Origin: Candidatus Poriferihabitaceae bacterium
GTDB taxonomy: Bacteria; Pseudomonadota; Gammaproteobacteria; Arenicellales; Poriferihabitantaceae
DNA length: 64,000 nt
Assembly (NCBI GenBank): GCA_965262585.1
Contig: OZ253546.1
Location: forward strand, 1,930,547-1,994,546
Reading direction: 5' to 3'
Below the pieces are notes generated by a model that saw only the letters and a program-made list of their open reading frames with translations, was not told where the DNA came from and did no database searches. The first letter of the stretch is position 1. The number at the start of each line of letters is the position of its first letter. This document shows positions 34,335-49,932 of the stretch, piece after piece. The position numbers were made by a program, and so were the translations under genes.

Positions 34335-34472
34335 TGTGGGTTACGATAAAGTAGGCACGATGGTGCGGCGGGTGTCTTCGCTACCATAGTATCGTTCGGC
34401 GGTTGAACCAGTCTCAAGTATAGCCGATTGATAGCGTGGTAGGGCAGCCGGGATTGTTTAACTGGATTCCCT

Positions 34473-35500
34473 GAATTCACAAACGAAGCGCAACACTCTG
34501 CTACGGTATTACCATGGGAAATCACTACAAACAGATCACCCTTGAAGAGCGCTGTGAAATGGCCTACTTACTCACCAAGGGACACTCACTCCGACAAATC
34601 GCGGCAGCTCTGGATCGCGCGCCATCTACGGTGTCGCGAGAACTGAATCGCAATGGCTCTGCAACCAAGGGCTACGAGAAAGACTATGCCGACCTGAAAG
34701 CCCGGGCGCGGCGATGGCAAGGCTCTATGCTGGACCGCGATGAGGTGCTGCGCGAGGAAGTTTTGGATTTGCTCAAACACGACTGGTCGCCCCAACAGGT
34801 GTCCGCCGGACTTGCCCGAAAGCACCAGCGGCCAGTCATTTCCTACGAAACCATCTACCGCTTCGTCTATGCCCAAATTGCTCGTAAAAAAGAATATCCA
34901 TGGCGCCATTATCTGCCCCAAGCCCGATCAAAACGAAGCCGCCGCCGGCACAAACTGAACGGCAAAGCACCCGCTATATCCCAACGCCGGCCACTCTCTG
35001 AGCGGCCAGACACCGCCACCGACCGACAAACCCCCGGTCATTGGGAAGCCGACCTGATGCTGTTTAGCGCCTACGGTCAAGCCTTGCTGGTTGTCCAAGA
35101 ACGGCACTCCCGCCTGCTGCTCGCGGCGCGCCCCGCCGGCAAATCCGCGGCGCCCATCGCCGAACTTATCGGCGACCTGCTGGCACCGCTGCCACCCACA
35201 TGGCGGCAAACCATTACCTTCGATAACGGCACTGAATTCGCCCGCCATTACCACCTCCATGCCCTCGGTATTGAGACCTTTTTCTGCGACATCAGAGCGC
35301 CCTGGCAAAAGGGCGGTGTTGAAAATTCCATCGGTCGCTTGCGCCGGAACTTGCCCCGAAAAACCGACCTGAAAACCCTCTCAGATGAGCACTTTACACG
35401 CATCATACAAGCGCATAATAATACCCCCCGAAAGTGCCTCGGCTATCAAACTCCCGCCGAGGTTTTTAGAAACCATGTGTTGCGCTTCAAATGTGAATGT
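34473..35500 (+). mobile_element. IS30-family insertion sequence
   Basis: Terminal inverted repeats are ATTCACAAACGAAGCGCAACAC (34475..34496) and GTGTTGCGCTTCAAATGTGAAT (35477..35498), matching at about 19 of 22 positions. They enclose one IS30-type transposase ORF. Confidence 0.75.
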
Positions 35501-35524
35501 GCATTCCCGCTTTCGCGGGAATGA
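34514..35524 (+). CDS. IS30-family transposase
   Basis: N-terminal HTH (LTKGHSLRQIAAALDRAPSTVSRELNRN). DDE region (HWEADL...TFDNGTEF...PWQKGGVEN). The ORF reads through the right IR and stops in flanking REP DNA. Confidence 0.85.
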   Translation: MGNHYKQITLEERCEMAYLLTKGHSLRQIAAALDRAPSTVSRELNRNGSATKGYEKDYADLKARARRWQGSMLDRDEVLREEVLDLLKHDWSPQQVSAGLARKHQRPVISYETIYRFVYAQIARKKEYPWRHYLPQARSKRSRRRHKLNGKAPAISQRRPLSERPDTATDRQTPGHWEADLMLFSAYGQALLVVQERHSRLLLAARPAGKSAAPIAELIGDLLAPLPPTWRQTITFDNGTEFARHYHLHALGIETFFCDIRAPWQKGGVENSIGRLRRNLPRKTDLKTLSDEHFTRIIQAHNNTPRKCLGYQTPAEVFRNHVLRFKCECAFPLSRE

Positions 35525-35545
35525 CGACGAGTGGGGCTACGATTG

Positions 35546-42769: not shown

Positions 42770-44683
42770 TTACTTCACCAGCAACTTATTAATTCGCTTA
42801 ACATAATCACCCGGGTCTTTGAGCGTTGCGCCTTCCGCTAGTGCGGCGTGGTCGAACAACACATTGGCCCACTCTTCGATCAAGTCACCCTCGGCGTCGA
42901 TCTGTTTGACAATGGCGTGCTGCGGGTTGATTTCTAAAATCGGTTTGCTGTCCGGTGCGTCCTGGCCGATGGCTTGCAAAATGCGCGCCATGTTGCCGCC
43001 GATGTCGTGGCTGTCGGCCACCAGACAAGCGGGCGAATCCACCAGTCGGTTGGAAATCCGCACTTCTTTAACCTTATCTTCAAGCACCGACTTGATTTTG
43101 TCCACCAGCGGTTTCATCCGCGCCGATTGCGGGTCGGCTTTTTCTTCACTGTCTTCGGCGGGGCTTTTTTCGCCCGTCAGTTCACCGATATCGAGGTCGC
43201 CTTTGGCAATCGATTGCAGTGGTTTTTCCTGATAACTGTTCAGGTGGCCGACCACCCATTCGTCAACCGAATCGGATAGCAATAACACCTCGATGTCGTT
43301 CTTGCGGAACACCTCGAGATGTGGAGACGATTTCGCCCCCGCGTGGCTGTCGGCGGTCACATAGTAAATCGCTTTTTGTTTTTCCGGCATCCGGGTGAGA
43401 TAATCTTCAAGCGAGACACTTTGCGTGTCGTCGTCCACATGCGTGGAAGCGAAACGCAACAGTTTGGCGAGCGCGTCTTTGTTTTCAGAATCCTCGATCA
43501 TCCCTTCCTTAATCACGCGACCGTATTCTTTCCACAACGCCGCATATGCATCGCTGTCGTTGGCGGCGATTTTTTTCAGTTCGTTCAGAACTTTTTTGAC
43601 CGAAGCGGCGCGGATTTTGTCGATCTGTTTGTTTTGCTGCAGAAATTCCCGCGACACATTCAACGGCAGGTCGGCGGAATCCACCAAGCCGCGCACGAAA
43701 CGCAGGTAATTCGGCATTAATTGCTTGGCATCCTCGGCGATGAAAATCCGCCGCACATAAAGTTTGATGCCATGCCGTTGCTCGCGATCCCACAAATCGA
43801 ACGGCGCCTTCGATGGGATGTAGAACAACGAGATATACTCCATTTTCCCTTCAACCCGGTTGTGTAGCGTGACCGCCGGCGGCTGCGAATCATAGGTAAG
43901 CGCGGTATACAAAGCGTTATATTCATCGGCGGAAATCTCGGTTTTTGGACGCGCCCACAACGCCGATCCATCGTTGACGGTTTCCCATTGCGCTTCCTGT
44001 CCGGCAATTTCCTTTCCATCGTCATCGCGCTCCAGTTCCTTTTGCATTTGGATTGGCAGCGAGATGTGATCGGAATATTTTCCGATGATGGAGCGCAGGC
44101 GATAATGCTCCCTAAATTCCTTTTGCTCGGGTTTCAGTTTGAGGATGATTTCGGTGCCACGCTCGCGCCGCTCGATGGTTTCAAGGGTGTATTCGCCGCT
44201 GCCGTCGGAGACCCATTTAACCCCTTCAGATTCCGGCGTTCCGGCGCGGCGCGTCAGCAGCGTAACTTCCCCGGCCACCAGAAAAGCCGAATAAAACCCG
44301 ACCCCGAACTGGCCGATGAACGAACTGTCGCGCGCTTCATCTTTGCTCATCTGTTCGATGAATTGGCGCGTGCCGGAGCGGGCGATGGTGCCGATATTCT
44401 CGATCACTTCATCGTGACTCATGCCGATGCCGTTGTCGCGAATGGTGATGGTTTTTTTCTTGTCGTCGATGTCGATCCAAATGCCGAGTGCTTGGTCGTC
44501 TTCGTATAAGTTTTTGTCGGTCAGCGCCAAAAACCGCAGCCGGTCGCAGGCATCCGAAGCATTGGAAATCAACTCACGCAGAAAAATTTCCTTGTTGCTG
44601 TAGAGCGAATGGATGATGAGGTGCAGCAGTTGCTGAACCTCGGTTTGAAACGCATGGGTTTCAACGGCGGTTTTGACGGTCAT
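42770..44683 (-). CDS. htpG: Molecular chaperone HtpG (Hsp90)
   Basis: FQTEVQQLLHLIIHSLYSNKEIFLRELISNASDA and GQFGVGFYS. Start at MTVKTAVETHAF (ATG 44683). Confidence 0.95.
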   Translation of the reverse strand: MTVKTAVETHAFQTEVQQLLHLIIHSLYSNKEIFLRELISNASDACDRLRFLALTDKNLYEDDQALGIWIDIDDKKKTITIRDNGIGMSHDEVIENIGTIARSGTRQFIEQMSKDEARDSSFIGQFGVGFYSAFLVAGEVTLLTRRAGTPESEGVKWVSDGSGEYTLETIERRERGTEIILKLKPEQKEFREHYRLRSIIGKYSDHISLPIQMQKELERDDDGKEIAGQEAQWETVNDGSALWARPKTEISADEYNALYTALTYDSQPPAVTLHNRVEGKMEYISLFYIPSKAPFDLWDREQRHGIKLYVRRIFIAEDAKQLMPNYLRFVRGLVDSADLPLNVSREFLQQNKQIDKIRAASVKKVLNELKKIAANDSDAYAALWKEYGRVIKEGMIEDSENKDALAKLLRFASTHVDDDTQSVSLEDYLTRMPEKQKAIYYVTADSHAGAKSSPHLEVFRKNDIEVLLLSDSVDEWVVGHLNSYQEKPLQSIAKGDLDIGELTGEKSPAEDSEEKADPQSARMKPLVDKIKSVLEDKVKEVRISNRLVDSPACLVADSHDIGGNMARILQAIGQDAPDSKPILEINPQHAIVKQIDAEGDLIEEWANVLFDHAALAEGATLKDPGDYVKRINKLLVK

Positions 44684-44731
44684 AATAATGGTCGGTGCAG
44701 GTTGGAGTGATAATTCGAGCAAACGCGGAAA

Positions 44732-44758
44732 AAATGGGGATGCCACGCCGATTTTCAA
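44732..44758 (-). promoter_or_regulatory. Sigma-32 (RpoH) heat-shock promoter of htpG
   Basis: The minus strand reads gTTGAAA-13 nt-CCCCATTT, matching the TTGAAA-N13/14-CCCCATNT consensus. It lies about 45 nt upstream of the htpG ATG. Confidence 0.65.
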
Positions 44759-44789
44759 CCCCCACGGCGGCCAAATGACGACCTTGCGA

Positions 44790-45400
44790 TAGCCGACTCC
44801 CCAGGCCCGTCATTCTCGCGAAAGCGGGAATCCAGTACAACATGTCCTGCGACAGCCGACTCCTTATTAGCCTTCTGGATTCCCGATACGATGAAAAATA
44901 TGGTCGCTGGCGCTCCCTATTTTTCTATCGTTCGGGAATGACGCACTTTTGATATTCCTCGTTTGTCGATGAGGACTCCCAGATCGTCATTCTCGTGCCG
45001 CCAAGTCGTTATTTCCGCGACAGCGGGAATAACGACTTGGGGGACACGGGAATCCAGTGAAACATGCCGGCGACAGCCGACTCCCTACGCCGTTATTCTC
45101 GCGCAACTGGAATCCAGTACAACATGTCCTGCGAGATCCGACTCATTATTAGCCTTCTGGATTCCCGATACGATGAAAAATATGGTCGCTGGCGCTCCCT
45201 ATTTTTCTATCGTTCGAGAATGACGCACTTTTGATATTCCTCGTTTGTCGATGAGGACTCCCAGATCGTCATTCTCGTGCCCCCAAGTCGTTATTTCCGC
45301 GACAGCGGGAATGACGACTTGGGGGACACGGGAATCCAGTGAAACAAGTCCGGCGACAGCCGCTCCTTATAATAACCGGCTCCGGCGGGCATTTAATCGC
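44790..45400. repeat. Array of REP-like hairpin modules (left array), including a roughly 282-bp tandem duplication
   Basis: Three modules recur. One is CGTCATTCTCGCGAAAGCGGGAATCCAG. The second is a roughly 62-bp hairpin, ATTCCCGATACGATGAAAAATA..TATTTTTCTATCGTTCGGGAAT. The third is a roughly 40-bp hairpin, CCAAGTCGTTATTTCCGCGACAGCGGGAATAACGACTTGG. Segment 44868.. repeats at 45148... Confidence 0.85.
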
Positions 45401-45410
45401 GATTTGTGGC

Positions 45411-45440
45411 TTGACTATCCGGCAATCGCTTCAATATAAT
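45411..45440 (+). promoter_or_regulatory. Near-consensus sigma-70 promoter of the autotransporter gene
   Basis: TTGACT (45411), an 18-nt spacer, then TATAAT (45435). GAGGA SD lies about 9 nt before ATG 45502. Confidence 0.55.
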
Positions 45441-45501
45441 GGCTGAGACTTTGTATTTGTGGAAACCTTTCAACGGCGCATTATTACGAGGAACATTTAC
45501 C

Positions 45502-48500
45502 ATGAACTATCACAGCACAATCAATAACATGAATTCCCCTGACGGCCTGTCGTCCGTCCCCTTTAATTCGGGGGGGGGGGGGGGGGCAATAGTGCTCGGC
45601 GTTTCGGCGTTGCGCTACTGATTGGATTTACTCTTTTCCTCGGCTGGTCGATAGAGGCCAGTGCACAGGAAGCCGTCAGACTACCAAATCCGAGTGGAGT
45701 CGGTGCCAACCCCAACACGAACTTCATCGTTCTGTACTACCCGACTAACCAGGCGATTACCCCCCTGACCCTGCCGACGGGCAGCGGCGGCTCCGCCCCT
45801 TTGACCTACAGTATATTTCATGTTAACACCGGAGCCACAGGCATATACGACCAGTTGGGGCTGACCTTTAACCCGACCACCCGCGTTCTGTCCGGCACGC
45901 CGACCACGGCTACCTCCGGCCCGACACCCGCAGATGGTTTTCCAGCCGGCTATGGTGCGTCTGACGGAACCGGAAGTTCACAAGCCTTCGCCTTGATACA
46001 AATGTTTGTCTTCATCTGCGAAGCCGGGAAAGAGGGAAACATCAGCGGCACAGTTCCTTGCTATGTTGATTTGGCTGTATCGACGTTGTCCGATGTGAAC
46101 TATGTCGCCGGTCAGGCGATTACCCCCCTGACCCTGCCGGAGGCCACCGGCGGCAGCGTAAACATCTCCCCCACAATCGTCACCCAACGGACTTATACAT
46201 TGGCACCGTTGCCGGATGGCCTGACCTTTGACGCAACTACCCGCGTCTTATCCGGCACGCCGACCACGGCCGGCAACATCACTCCGGTATACGGAGTGAC
46301 CGACACCCTAAGCGGGAGAACACTAACCCCGACCGCTTCTTTCACCGCCACGGTAGGAGCCGGGTTGGGCGCGTCTGCGCCGGGTGCTCAAACCTATCCG
46401 CGCAACGCGGCGATCACCGCTTTGACCTTGCCGGAAGCGGCCGGCGGCACAGGTCCGTATACCTACACTCTGACCGGGCCGAGCGGTGGTAATTTGCCAG
46501 CCGGATTGGCTTTTGCCACAGGCACCCGCATTCTGTCCGGCACGCCGACCACGGCAGGCGTCACCGAGTTGACCTACACCGCCACCGATGCGAACAGCAT
46601 CATGGACACGGCGACCTTCACAGTGACCATCACTACAACGATGTTCACCGATACGGTATCTGATCCGACCTATGTCATAAATGAGGCGGTCAATTTGACT
46701 TTGCCGGGAGCGGTTGGCGGCACAGGTTCGTATACCTACACCCTGACCGGGCCGAGCGGTGGTAACTTGCCGGTCGGATTGGCTTTTGCCACAGGCACCC
46801 GCATTCTGTCCGGCACGCCGACCACGGCCGGCAACACCGTGTTGACCTACACCGCCACCGATTCGGTCGGCAACAGCGACCCTGCGACCTTCACAGTGAC
46901 CATCACTACAACGATGTTCACCGAGATGGTGGCTAATCAAACCTATACTATAGATAGGGCGGTCAATTTGACTTTGCCGGGAGCGGTTGGCGGCACAGGT
47001 TCGTATACCTACACCCTGACCGGGCCGAGCGGTGCTGCCTTGCCAACCGGATTGGCTTTTGCCACAGGCACCCGCATTTTGTCCGGCACGCCGACCACGG
47101 CCGGCGTCACCGTGTTGACCTACACCGCCACCGATGCGAACAGCAACAGCGACACGATGACCTTTACCGTCACAGTAGCCGAGCCCGCCTCCGGCCCGGA
47201 CCCTGAAGATATCAGGGCCATCAACGAGGTATTTATCTCCGAATTGGCGACCACCATGACCGGCCAGACTTCGGGCGCCATCACACAACGCATCGCGCAA
47301 ACCAGATCCGGTAGTGGCGGCGGCGTAACCCTTGCAGGCCAGTCTTCTTTTGCTGACTTGGCGACTACCCATGGCAAATCTCTAACCGAAGGCACGAGTG
47401 ATATGAAATCCATGCTGAACGGTTCCGGGTTTGCGTTGCCGTTGAATGCAGTGGGAGGTGGTATTGGCGTGTATTCACCGGCTTTTTGGGGCAGTGGTGG
47501 GTATGAAGAGATTTCTGGTGAGAGTGATCTCACTGACGGCAAACTGGATTGGGACGGCGATGTCTCGAGTTTTTCGGTGGGGGTGGATGCGCACCTACGC
47601 AATAATTTGCTGGGCGGTGTGGCGATAACGCGCAACGAGGCGGATTTGGAATACGATGTTACCAACGATGATGACAAAAGCGACTACGAATTGACCATGA
47701 CCAGCGTCAATCCGTATCTGGGTTGGAGAGTCGGGCAGTTAGACTTTTGGGCCACGGTTGGCTACGGCACCGGTGATTTGGATACCACCGACATCGACAG
47801 CGATGTGGACATGCGATCCTTCGCCGGTGGCGGTGGCGGCCAAATAATGGCACTCGGCAATGGCGGCACCTTGCGTCTCAAAGGCGAAGTCTCGCAAACC
47901 TGGGTAAATGTGGACGCCGACCGCGCAAACAATATTCGCTCGCTGGATGTGGACGTCAACCGAGTTCGAGTATCGCTGGAAGCACGCCAGCCCTGGGCGA
48001 TAAGCCACGCCACCAAATTGCAATCCACCCTGGAAGTAGGCGCGCGCCATGACGGCGGCGACGGCGAAACCGGCACCGGACTTGAATTGAATGCCGGTCT
48101 TCGCTATCACACTCAGAGGCTGACGCTGGAAGGCAATATCCACACCCTGCTAGGCCGTGAAGACTACGACGAATGGGGCATAAGCGGCACCATCATCCTG
48201 CAATCTGGCAAAGATGGACAGGGTTTGTCGCTAAGTCTAAGCCCCGGCTACGGCGAGGCTGGCGATCGCAAGTTGTGGGATAACGGCCTGCCGGAAGACA
48301 GCATCGCTGAGACTGATTACGAAATGCGCCTAAACACCCGCATTGGCTATGGCATATCCGCTCCTCATGGTTGGGATGGAATGCTAACCCCATACAGCGA
48401 AATGACCCTCGGCACCACCAACAGTTACCGCTTCGGCATCGGTTGGGAAATTAACCGCTATGGTTTGGATTTGGTTGGGGAACATCGTCAAGGTGGTGAG

Positions 48501-48536
48501 AATGCTGCTTTGGTTAAGGGTGAGGTGCGGTTTTAG
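45502..48536 (+). CDS. He_PIG/cadherin-like-repeat autotransporter (type Va), frameshifted at a poly-G tract in this assembly (predicted phase-variable, OFF)
   Basis: ATG 45502 (frame 1) runs into G17 at 45570..45586 and stops at 45621. Frame 0 after the tract encodes a signal peptide, ..RRFGVALLIGFTLFLGWSIEASA|QE. This is followed by 5 repeats of the type LTLP..GGTG.YTYTL...LSGTPTTAG...TATD, and a beta-barrel ending ...VKGEVRF. The first canonical in-frame start after the tract is TTG 45801, which lies inside repeat 1. Confidence 0.75.
45570..45586 (+). repeat. Homopolymeric G17 tract inside the 5' coding region
   Basis: Counted directly: the last base of block 45561-70, all of block 45571-80, and the first six bases of block 45581-90. 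G18 or G15 would join the upstream ATG frame to the main ORF. Confidence 0.95.
46389..47180 (+). repeat. Three near-identical tandem coding repeats (276, 273 and about 243+ bp) in the passenger domain
   Basis: Units start at 46389, 46665 and 46938. Long identical runs occur, e.g. GGCGGCACAGGTTCGTATACCTACACCCTGACCGGGCCGAGCGGTG and GCTTTTGCCACAGGCACCCGCATT.TGTCCGGCACGCCGACCACGGC. Confidence 0.85.
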
Positions 48537-48544
48537 ATTCCCTC

Positions 48545-49200
48545 TCGTCATCCGCAAACGAGGAATATCAAAAGTGCGTCATTCTCGAACGATAGAAAAA
48601 TAGGGAGCGCCAGCGACCATATTTTTCATCGTCCCCCAGATCGTCATTCCCGAACGATAGAAAAATAAGGAGCGCCAGCGACTATATTTTTCATCGTATC
48701 GGGAATCCAGAAGGCCAATAAGGAGTCGGCTGTCGCCGGCATGTTTTACTGGATTCCCGCTTTCGCGAGAATGACGGCGAGAGGAGCGGCTATCGCCGGA
48801 CATGTTTTACTGGATTCCCGTGTCCCCCAACTCGTCATTCCCGCTGTCGCGGAAATAACGACTTGGCGGCACGAGAATGACGGCCCTGGGGAGTCGGCTA
48901 TCGCAAGGTCGTCATTCTCGAACGATAGAAAAATAAGGAGCGCCAGCGACTATATTTTTCATCGTATCGGGAATCCAGAAAGCCAAATAAGGAGTCGGCT
49001 GTCGCAGGAATGACGGCCCTGGGGAGTCGGCTATCGCAAGGTCGTCATTCCCGAACGATAGAAAAATAGGGAGCGCCAGCGACCTTATTTTTCATCGTAT
49101 CGGGAATCCAGTGAAACAATCCCGACTCAGCCGGACCTTATATAAGGAGCGGCTTACGTCGTTTCGGACAGGCACGGGGGCCTGTCCCTACGAGGGCGGA
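48545..49200. repeat. Array of REP-like hairpin modules (right array), inverted relative to the left array
   Basis: 48555..48603 is the exact reverse complement of 45199..45247 (49 bp). 48637..48900 aligns to the reverse complement of 44761..44942 with few mismatches. Ends with the hairpin GGACAGGCACGGGGGCCTGTCC (49170..49191). Confidence 0.85.
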
Positions 49201-49276
49201 ACGGACAAAACTTCAATACCCATCCGTGCTTTAATATCATCCACAGGGCAATAGGGGGGTGGGCGCAGACGGTTCA

Positions 49277-49305
49277 TTGACGGCGGCGGCCAATATCCGT
49301 ATAGT
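49277..49305 (+). promoter_or_regulatory. Sigma-70 promoter of the tRNA operon
   Basis: TTGACG, a 17-nt spacer, then TATAGT, followed by a GC-rich discriminator (TTGCGGCC). About 70 nt upstream of tRNA-Pro. Confidence 0.55.
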
Positions 49306-49374
49306 TTGCGGCCTTGGCCGTGGTCGAAGCCGATACAATTCGGTGTTTATTGCGGCTAGTATCGGAGCCAGTAT

Positions 49375-49451
49375 CGGGGTATAGCGCAGCCTGGTAGCGC
49401 GCCTGCTTTGGGAGCAGGATGTCGGGAGTTCAAATCTCTCTACCCCGACCA
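49375..49451 (+). tRNA. tRNA-Pro (anticodon UGG)
   Basis: Cloverleaf with acceptor CGGGGTA/TACCCCG, anticodon loop TTTGGGA and an encoded CCA. Confidence 0.85.
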
Positions 49452-49468
49452 ATTTTCGCTTATTCGTT

Positions 49469-49545
49469 GCGCCCGTAGCTCAACCGGATAGAGCAACGGC
49501 CTTCTAAGCCGTAGGTTACAGGTTCGAATCCTGTCGGGCGCGCCA
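49469..49545 (+). tRNA. tRNA-Arg (anticodon UCU)
   Basis: Acceptor GCGCCCG/CGGGCGC, anticodon loop CTTCTAA, TTCGAAT T-loop and CCA. Confidence 0.85.
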
Positions 49546-49633
49546 TGCGCATTGGCGGTTTCTGCGCAGATTCTCGTATACAATATATGGCGGGAATCGA
49601 GATTGCGGAAGCAAACTCGAATCGAAAGAATAT

Positions 49634-49710
49634 GGTGAGCGTAGCTCAGTTGGTAGAGCCCCGGATTGTGATTCCGGTCGTCGTGGGTTCGAGTCCCATC
49701 GTTCACCCCA
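49634..49710 (+). tRNA. tRNA-His (anticodon GUG)
   Basis: Extra 5' G(-1), anticodon loop TTGTGAT, TTCGAGT T-loop and CCA. Confidence 0.85.
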
Positions 49711-49733
49711 AGTTTTTTTCGGCGGATTATGAC

Positions 49734-49810
<77 letters not shown>

Positions 49811-49847
49811 GTTATTCGGCGAATATACGGTGTAGAAATATTTGTGT

Positions 49848-49932
<85 letters not shown>

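Follow-up and report, generated by a model that had tools for sequence, protein, structure and literature searches.

NTS/dRS3 repeat arrays, and how they relate to variable surface antigens, have been studied almost solely in pathogenic Neisseria. Their role has been under debate for 25 years, and it was not until 2025 that a cognate nuclease was described. This enzyme, SsnA, is a single-stranded DNA (ssDNA) nuclease of the Ssn family (GIY-YIG, cd10448) that is paired with the NTS/dRS3 repeats, and NTS-like repeats and Ssn homologues also occur well outside Neisseria (Nat Commun 2025, PMC11893778). Several features of that system recur in the genome studied here, namely a 20-bp palindrome, ATTCCC-N8-GGGAAT, with directional flanks CGTC...CYRG; hundreds of copies grouped round particular genes ('NTS-gene-NTS'); and a gene for a ~95-aa single-domain GIY-YIG protein that is itself flanked by the repeats. 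The host, however, is a sponge-symbiont gammaproteobacterium (Ca. Poriferihabitaceae/Arenicellales).

The arrays also resemble the Neisseria intergenic mosaic elements (NIMEs; Parkhill 2000; Bentley 2007, PMC1797815), in which dRS3-type palindromes alternate with 50-150-bp repeat units. Both are intergenic, lie beside variable surface-protein genes, differ in length and content by locus, receive IS insertions and are proposed recombination substrates. According to Bentley 2007 (PMC1797815), NIME-type arrays had not been observed outside Neisseria. In contrast to NIMEs, which draw on >100 RS families, the arrays here are tandem strings, strictly of one polarity and built from a few module types (B, E, C and D), and the flanked cassette has, by comparison with relatives, demonstrably been copied to new conserved intergenic sites. 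The REP/BIME and REPIN-RAYT systems of E. coli and Pseudomonas (Bertels & Rainey) share extragenic palindromes, mosaic arrays with successive hairpins alternating in orientation, a preference for gene 3' ends and a single-copy 'domesticated' nuclease gene flanked by its own repeats, but no Y1 transposase (PF01797) is present here and the repeat-flanked gene encodes a GIY-YIG nuclease. As in the phase-variable autotransporters of Neisseria and Haemophilus (such as NalP and MspA), the reading frame depends on a homopolymer tract in the 5' coding region, each of several paralogues has a tract of its own, and dRS3-type repeats lie nearby.

The window, a stretch of 64,000 nucleotides, holds one such autotransporter gene, and the locus is probably a recently amplified poly-G He_PIG autotransporter cassette, embedded on both sides in NTS/dRS3-type arrays and linked to an Ssn-type nuclease. 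We take the array repeats to be 'Ssn-related motifs', laid out like Neisseria intergenic mosaic elements. The features are as follows.

42770..44683, minus strand: htpG (Hsp90), the conserved left neighbour (Pfam HSP90, E=2e-128)
44774..45367, plus strand: left repeat array, of one polarity, module order D-B-E-C-(degenerate NTS-like 20-mer)-B-E-C
44812-44831: 20-bp dRS3/NTS-type palindrome of the left array (ATTCTC variant), within a forward NTS match from 44808
44879-44939 and 45161-45221: two 61-bp hairpins of the left array
44989-45053 and 45271-45335: two nested 65-bp hairpins of the left array
45368..45501, plus strand: cassette promoter and leader, read directly from the sequence (TTGACT 45411-45416, 18-nt spacer, TATAAT 45435-45440)
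45502..48536, plus strand: autotransporter gene, with its ATG at 45502
45570..45586, plus strand: poly-G tract of 17 G in the 5' coding region
48545..49200, minus strand: right repeat array, of polarity opposite to the left, modules e-b'-b-c-b-d-b
48646-48706, 48914-48974 and 49047-49107: 61-bp hairpins of the right array
48753-48772: NTS palindrome of the right array, within a reverse NTS match from 48749
48814-48878: nested hairpin of the right array
49165-49196: copy of a second short hairpin family in the right array
49375..49932, plus strand: tRNA-Pro(tgg)/Arg(tct)/His(gtg)/Lys(ctt)/Leu(tag) cluster, the conserved right neighbour, followed by tig as the next gene

The right array opens with ATTCCC immediately 3' of the autotransporter stop codon. 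A repeat search returned 12 inverted pairs of 45-101 nt, at 90-98% identity, between 44774-45367 and 48545-49111, which is far above the chance expectation for random sequence. The preliminary description had reported inverted hairpin arrays around the gene, and these are real: the identity of 45199..45247 with the reverse complement of 48555..48603 is exact (49/49) and forms part of a longer exact match of 78 nt (45170-45247 versus 48555-48632), and 44786-44942 matches the reverse complement of 48643-48796 at 93% over 157 nt. The left array also contains the 282-bp duplication noted earlier (238 nt at 97% identity, spacing 282). It does not point to special activity at this locus, however, since it is an ordinary B-E-C array unit found genome-wide, with copies elsewhere that are 91-97% identical.

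Array sequence totals 68,175 bp in 162 blast clusters, ~2.6% of the 2.6-Mb genome, and comprises ~261 B and ~206 C modules in 96 arrays, all of them intergenic and the longest 2.6 kb. The modules are palindromes with ATTCCC...GGGAAT ends. ATTCCC-N8-GGGAAT, a perfect 6+2 bp palindrome by inspection, has 77 exact copies, compared with 0 for six control hexamer palindromes, and ATTCCC-N49-GGGAAT has 196. The directional 28-nt NTS consensus published for Neisseria, CGTCATTCCCGCGMAVGCGGGAATCYRG (PMC11893778), is matched exactly at 17 sites, at 100 with <=1 mismatch and at 151 with <=2, and its reversed-pattern control has 0 matches. The short module form fits the Neisseria NTS/dRS3 consensus. The dominant modules differ from the Neisseria NTS in being 61-bp and nested 65-bp hairpins, but retain ATTCCCG...CGGGAAT ends and CGTC/CCAG flanks. 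Polarity is uniform in 85/85 multi-module arrays. Of the neighbouring array pairs <=6 kb apart, 21 are inverted and 8 direct (21/29, p=0.024), and the inverted ones flank genes of all kinds; an inverted array pair around a gene is therefore a common arrangement in this genome, a local norm and not a locus-specific switch. Genes bracketed singly on both sides by arrays are mostly autotransporters. The preliminary description had set these arrays apart from scattered REPs and had named genome-wide abundance of the modules as an argument against its own reading. The modules are indeed abundant, inverted pairs around genes are common, and the arrays of this locus are ordinary members of the 96-array family.

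The GIY-YIG domain (PF01541) is matched at 1795222-1795443 and 1796014-1796235 of the genome. The two matches belong to a tandem pair of 98-aa single-domain proteins with 99% mutual identity (genes within 1795165-1796250), which score 63 bits over positions 2-77 of the 78-position model and in which no other domain was found. NTS copies at 1794814, 1795606 and 1796398 interleave with the two genes. Residues Y9, Y20 and E67 are spaced identically to Y6, Y17 and E64 of SsnA, the residues mutated in the SsnA study (PMC11893778). A PDB search returned only distant UPF0213 proteins, and NCBIfam nothing specific. Size, domain, residue spacing and the hallmark of flanking repeats assign the proteins as putatively Ssn-type. 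The system differs from Neisseria SsnA in its tandemly duplicated nuclease gene, and cleavage of the array repeats by the protein is putative, suggested by its family membership. Repeat-flanked GIY-YIG genes are also present in relatives G004, G011, G002, G017 and G034, and homologues in the unrelated genomes G154 and G318 carry the same 20-mer on both sides, that in G352 on one side. Within the genus, nuclease and repeat are both present in 5 genomes, both absent in 5 and discordant in 2. In a 400-genome sample of the class, a homologue (E<=1e-12) was found in 20/39 motif-rich genomes versus 72/360 others (OR 4.2, p=6.5e-5). The enzyme-repeat link is not exclusive, because about half of the motif-rich genomes are without a homologue and the Neisseria repeat has been ascribed to RAYT (Bertels and Rainey). 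The RAYT suggested in the preliminary description gave 0 matches in this genome (Y1 HUH transposase, PF01797), while the control search was positive in 6/14 reference genomes; the associated enzyme appears instead to be the Ssn-type GIY-YIG nuclease.

The autotransporter consists of a leader (MNYHSTINN...), the G17 tract, a signal peptide, four He_PIG Ig-like repeats and a beta-barrel. Its reading frame is off at G17 and would be on at G15, G18 or G21, and the paralogues described below have G22, C19 and G12 at the equivalent position. We infer that the gene is phase-variable and that its expression is switched by the poly-G tract and not by inversion. An array lies <=120 bp 3' of the stop codon in 17/21 beta-domain (autotransporter) genes, against a background of 171/1804 genes (9.5%) with an array <=400 bp from the 3' end (OR 45, p=8e-15), these gene calls being approximate (longest-ORF method). 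In sampled regions of the relative G011, 4/6 autotransporter genes likewise have an array 3' of the stop. The association could partly reflect hitch-hiking in expansion of the gene family, and the array-linked autotransporters include paralogues sharing only 33-46% identity.

In >20 related sponge-symbiont genomes, htpG lies 230-450 bp from tRNA-Pro, and the interval contains neither an autotransporter gene nor arrays; the 4.4-kb array-gene-array block is therefore derived, inserted between htpG and the tRNA operon, in keeping with the discrete unit proposed earlier. HtpG orthologues share 70-83% identity across all relatives. Both divergent promoters flanking the insertion are intact in the window, and that of the tRNA cluster (TTGACG...TATAGT, ~49277-49315) was compared with the relatives. 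The cassette idea also gained ground, as the same architecture occurs at three other loci of the genome (2581.9-2585.2k, 621.3-624.5k and 797.6-800.5k). The four paralogous cassettes have in common the promoter, the poly-G tract and the array junctions. By blastn, the paralogues are 88-97% identical in promoter and leader and 91-94% at the 3' end, while the passenger is a mosaic of 51-98% identity per 100 nt; the best match in other species of the genus reaches 41-45% only. The cassette thus appears to have been recently copied and amplified. A second copy separates recR from a 556-aa gene, and these two adjoin in 7/11 genus relatives. Two cassette copies are thereby seen, against many relatives, inserted between otherwise adjacent conserved genes, and they offer a natural test case of whether such arrays help surface-protein genes to be copied and exchanged. 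ATTCCC...GGGAAT arrays, a repeat-flanked Ssn-type nuclease and homopolymer-switched autotransporters co-occur in an uncultured marine sponge symbiont, which suggests convergence on one 'contingency locus' design among host-associated bacteria of very different lifestyles.

In the explanation we favor, an Ssn nuclease system would spread and maintain the arrays, in a proposed RAYT/REP-like role. The arrays would supply portable homology, through which copies of whole cassettes could reach new intergenic sites and paralogues could swap passenger segments. If SsnA of N. meningitidis is a guide, the nuclease may cut repeat-bearing ssDNA and so modulate recombination at the flanked genes. The inverted array orientation would be the surviving arrangement, because a gene between direct repeats would be deleted, whereas inverted repeats could do no more than flip a self-contained unit. 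Insertion of a cassette with inverted arms would not follow from a simple double crossover into a single-polarity array. Ssn/NTS might itself move array-flanked cassettes, with ssDNA cut at the directional hairpins on both sides and the 'NTS-gene-NTS' unit freed and pasted intergenically, a step that we regard as unlikely. If it took place, Ssn/NTS would be more than a restriction-like brake on transformation: a mobile system that carries cargo and builds up a repertoire of phase-variable adhesins in a sponge symbiont.

The preliminary description had envisaged an invertible cassette, in which the arrays recombine and 45250-48550 flips. This is very improbable as a means of switching surface-protein expression, whether regulated or frequent: the promoter (45411-45440), the leader and the poly-G tract all lie within the segment and would travel with the gene, so that its own expression signals would be unchanged by a flip. 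Although the homology is sufficient for RecA (78 nt exact, ~600 bp at 90-98%) and the inverted arrangement is repeated at the paralogue loci, inverted neighbors are the genome-wide norm, and the G17 tract already serves as a working switch. Between htpG and the tRNAs the autotransporter is the sole gene, with no integrase, invertase or recombinase ORF. A Hin/Fim/Piv-type switch was rejected, there being no recombinase gene nearby, a promoter inside the segment and no IS110/Piv family protein in the genome. A tRNA-targeted genomic island was rejected as well, and the earlier hot-spot argument does not fit: the block sits upstream of the tRNA-Pro promoter rather than at the 3' end of a tRNA and is without an integrase.

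The arrays could also be selfish repeats only, MITE/REP-like parasites of tolerant intergenic DNA with no role in movement or recombination, linked to autotransporters through hitch-hiking in duplications. Arrays do lie beside many unrelated genes, in 31 convergent, 51 tandem and 14 divergent intergenic regions; module identity of 93-97% genome-wide suggests recent spread; a 68-nt hairpin is shared at 100% identity with a species whose HtpG reaches only 81%; and a selfish NTS-ssn-NTS origin was raised in the Ssn paper (PMC11893778). Recent hitch-hiking nevertheless fits poorly with a 45-fold enrichment at autotransporter 3' ends that extends to the 33-46% paralogues and to another species, the singly bracketed genes are mainly autotransporters, and the homologous Neisseria system measurably changes transformation (PMC11893778). 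We therefore consider this account unlikely. Another reading places the role of the arrays at the RNA level, as terminators, insulators or mRNA-stabilising 3' hairpins for strongly expressed autotransporters that would shield the htpG and tRNA promoters. Roles of this type belong to E. coli REP elements. Here, the first hairpin follows the stop codon by 4-120 bp in the 17 autotransporter genes and by 34-48 bp in G011, gene 3' ends are favored (an array <=400 bp from the 3' end of 171 genes versus the 5' end of 112; 31 convergent versus 14 divergent settings), and the DNA folds are very stable (61-nt module, -18.9 kcal/mol, z=-4.5; 65-nt module, -34.3 kcal/mol, z=-7.9). On inspection, however, no T run follows the stems, an Rfam search gave no match, lengths of up to 2.6 kb go far beyond what a terminator needs, and arrays lie upstream of promoters too, as the left array does. 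As the sole function we judge it most improbable, slightly more so than inversion; such a role would be compatible with the Ssn-linked cassette explanation, not exclusive of it.

The autotransporters themselves depart from those of Neisseria and Haemophilus in their passenger, made of He_PIG Ig-like repeats, in the great length of their tracts (12-29 nt) and in the size of the family, with 21 beta-domain loci in the 2.6-Mb genome and 10-60 in congeners.

The autotransporter cassette and its flanking arrays occupy the following positions in the window.

42770-44683, minus strand: htpG
44774-45367: left repeat array, 594 bp
45411-45440: promoter, TTGACT-18 nt-TATAAT
45502-48536: autotransporter ORF, starting with ATG at 45502; past the G17 tract it continues in another frame, as an open frame of 982 codons reaching 48536
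45570-45586: G17 tract
48545 to about 49200: right repeat array, beginning after the autotransporter stop codon
49375-49932: five tRNA genes (Pro, Arg, His, Lys, Leu), then tig and clpP

The two arrays are inverted relative to each other. The 49 of 49 inverted match reported in the preliminary description is exact, and the exact stretch grows to 78 nt (45170-45247 versus 48555-48632). A repeat search returned inverted pairs of 45-101 nt with 90-98% identity, and the observation therefore stands. Its interpretation, a mobilisable or invertible surface-protein cassette at a tRNA hot spot, is partly supported and is discussed below.

Four modules were defined in the arrays, B (98 nt), E (41 nt), C (101 nt) and D (52 nt). 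These are palindromes with ends ATTCCC(G)...(C)GGGAAT and sizes of 20 bp (N8), 61 bp (N49) and, nested, 65 bp (N53), and computed folds indicate strong folding as single-stranded DNA. By its published definition the neisserial repeat dRS3, which separates repeat units in neisserial intergenic mosaic element (NIME) arrays, is ATTCCC-N8-GGGAAT (PMC1797815). This 20-mer occurs 77 times in the source genome (G000), compared with 0 for control palindromes. About half of dRS3 copies were redefined in 2025 as the directional 28-nt Neisseria Transformation Sequence (NTS), CGTCATTCCCGCGMAVGCGGGAATCYRG (PMC11893778). Matches to the NTS consensus in G000 number 17 exact, 100 at one mismatch or fewer and 151 at two or fewer, while the reversed pattern gives 0; in the window they read forward from 44808 and reverse from 48749. 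The long hairpins of B and C retain the CGTC and CCAG flanks and, as in BIMEs, hairpin orientation alternates from one to the next within an array. On these sequence features, the arrays are NIME-like and built of NTS/dRS3-type, Ssn-related repeats. They are of a known kind; the host lineage is new, and extended hairpin variants are present. An attC/integron-like reading, with co-oriented hairpins after ORFs, was dropped because no ORFs lie between hairpins in the arrays. An Rfam scan of 44600-49400 at E≤1 gave no match, and blastn with the left array gave one trivial 41-nt match to plasmids and none to phages. Within a class sample of 400 genomes, the 20-mer was enriched (at least 10 copies; controls 0-1) in about 40, from many families. 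The form ATTCCCGC-N4-GCGGGAAT reaches 10-175 copies in ~10% of these 400 Gammaproteobacteria, again in many families; the dRS3-type palindrome is therefore much more widespread than Neisseria papers from the 2000s would suggest.

G000 is a single contig of 2.60 Mb with 55.9% G+C. The window arrays, blasted against it, covered 68 kb in 162 clusters, many of them bigger than the window arrays. The module scan found ~261 B and ~206 C copies with mean identities of 93-97%, grouped in 96 arrays. Polarity was uniform in all 85 of 85 multi-module arrays, each built of B-(E)-C-(D) units in tandem, and any pair of arrays is therefore either fully direct or fully inverted. The 282-bp tandem duplication noted in the left array is real (97%), but represents the ordinary B-E-C period, copies of which are equally similar elsewhere (91-97%). 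Neighbouring arrays at most 6 kb apart with at least one gene between them were inverted in 21 cases and direct in 8 (p=0.024). This surplus would be explained most simply if genes between direct repeats get lost. The arrays are not special to this locus, as the modules are abundant enough that inverted brackets around a gene are essentially expected. Array polarity in G000 had no bias by replichore and only a weak tendency relative to flanking gene direction (31 antisense, 20 sense). The cumulative GC skew is lowest at ~1.89 Mb and highest at ~0.14 Mb. The replichores implied by these positions are very unequal, about 0.85 and 1.75 Mb, and may reflect large rearrangements.

The 68-nt core of the B hairpin is 100% identical in many copies in the relative G004 (for example C1:258787-258856), although HtpG of G004 is only 81% identical, and is 90-94% identical in another species (G011). 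This identity across species suggests that the repeat is strongly constrained, has spread recently or has been transferred. Two other elements were observed at or near repeats of this type. A second short hairpin family, GGACAGGCACGGGGGCCTGTCC, lies at 49165-49196 on the outer edge of the right array and recurs at about 60 other genomic sites, often adjoining other arrays. Four copies of an IS30-family element, at least 99.5% identical (window 34455-35530; G000 964355-965428, 266793-267864 and 2466239-2467311), all sit at one point of an NTS-type repeat, ...CTGGATTCCC / IS / ATTCCCGCnnnCGCGGGAATGACG, which indicates that the element targets the palindrome with strict specificity. A preference for near-palindromic hot spots is known for the IS30 family (PMC9333248).

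In Neisseria, the 94-aa single-domain GIY-YIG protein SsnA binds the NTS as a single-stranded DNA hairpin, cleaves just upstream of it and reduces transformation with NTS-bearing DNA (PMC11893778). According to the same paper, ssnA genes are typically flanked by the repeat, and many phyla have related repeats and Ssn homologues. Searches of G000 for the REP-associated tyrosine transposase raised in the preliminary description (PF01797) and for IS110/Piv (PF01548) found none, with controls working in both. A GIY-YIG search found two 98-aa single-domain proteins, 99% identical (1795165-1795458 and 1795957-1796250). Their genes, within G000 C1:1794708-1796850, are two tandem copies in a 792-bp repeat unit, interleaved with NTS copies and separated by arrays of 4 or 5 modules. 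In the proteins, Y9, Y20 and E67 are spaced exactly like the residues that were mutated in SsnA. Across the class sample, homologues were present in 20 of 39 motif-rich genomes versus 72 of 360 others (OR 4.2, p=6.5e-5). The homologue has ATTCCCGC....GCGGGAAT on both sides within 15-50 bp in two class-sample genomes (G154, G318) and on one side in a third (G352). Within the genus, five genomes have both nuclease and repeat and five have neither, and in two fragmentary genomes the two disagree; the nuclease gene is again motif-flanked in these relatives. Domain, residue spacing and flanking repeats together mark the 98-aa protein as a putative Ssn-type nuclease. PDB and NCBIfam gave no informative match to it, and WD40 matches were spurious multi-domain noise. 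The genome also has a ComEC competence-channel gene (PF03772, 2328218-2329060 in a 916-aa frame), bracketed by inverted arrays (C1:2325824-2330422), and its presence leaves natural transformation possible.

Comparison with sponge-associated Gammaproteobacteria (Candidatus Poriferihabitaceae / Arenicellales / Ca. Spongiihabitans) marks the block in the window as a derived insertion. More than 20 relatives have EamA, htpG, then the divergent tRNA-Pro...Leu, tig and clpP. Their gap from htpG to tRNA-Pro measures 230-450 bp, and no autotransporter gene or array sequence was found in it. In the window the 4.4-kb block occupies this space, with the htpG sigma-32 promoter and the tRNA promoter both intact. 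Close paralogue cassettes lie at 2581.9-2585.2k, 621.3-624.5k and 797.6-800.5k of G000. They are 88-97% identical to the window copy over the promoter, leader and poly-G region and 91-94% at the 3′ end, with a mosaic passenger. Junctions are common to the paralogues, with the C module immediately next to the promoter and ATTCCC after the stop codon. The 797.6k copy has the promoter homology but no upstream array by module scan. At 2581k the cassette is flanked by recR and a 556-aa gene, which are direct neighbours in 7 of 11 congeners; a supposed splitting of grpE and dnaK by the 621-624k paralogue proved wrong on inspection. The autotransporter search among genome contigs found no related locus, and neither it nor a search with HtpG turned up a further assembly of this organism. 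Other species of the genus give best matches of only 41-45% identity, which places the cassette expansion within this lineage.

By these comparisons, new intergenic sites have received copies of the array-gene-array unit at least twice, and the description as a mobilisable cassette is therefore partly right. Because its arms are inverted, such a segment could not have entered a single-polarity array by a plain double crossover, and another step must be assumed. Insertion may have proceeded via array-primed ectopic recombination or repair or, alternatively, via an Ssn-dependent step. The tRNA hot-spot argument does not apply, because the insertion sits upstream of the operon promoter and no integrase lies between htpG and the tRNAs. 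Inversion of the block would not switch autotransporter expression, since promoter and poly-G tract both lie inside the segment.

The link between arrays and autotransporters extends across the genome. Of 21 beta-domain loci found by tblastn in G000, 17 have an array beginning 1-120 bp past the stop codon, versus 171 of 1804 approximate genes within 400 bp (OR 45, p=8e-15), and the enrichment takes in paralogues only 33-46% identical. Single genes with arrays on both sides are mostly autotransporters. In G011, with other hairpin subfamilies, an array follows the stop codon in 4 of 6 autotransporter genes of the sampled regions. The remaining interest of the locus is this tight coupling of arrays to a phase-variable autotransporter family, together with the demonstrable copy-and-insert history of the cassette.

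The encoded protein has four He_PIG Ig-like repeats and an autotransporter beta-domain. Its passenger contains three in-frame 273-bp tandem repeats (46421-47239) that encode He_PIG domains, with 74-87% identity to the first copy, and alignment gaps show that repeat number varies between paralogues. The reading frame is broken at 17 G; in-frame lengths would be 15, 18 or 21 G. Homopolymer tracts 9-29 nt long number 14 in G000, and autotransporter genes carry at least seven of them in their 5′ region. In the assembly, each of the four close cassettes has a tract length that puts it out of frame (G17 at 45570-45586; G22, C19 and G12 at G000 2582138, 624282 and 797797); long-read consensus tract lengths may be unreliable. 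A more distant paralogue (G000 453628-458568) has the same leader without a homopolymer tract. The congeners G001, G005, G010 and G011 have 10-60 He_PIG autotransporter loci each, some in open frames of 10,000-15,000 codons. Set against genome sizes of 2.3-3.1 Mb, this adhesin repertoire is very large.
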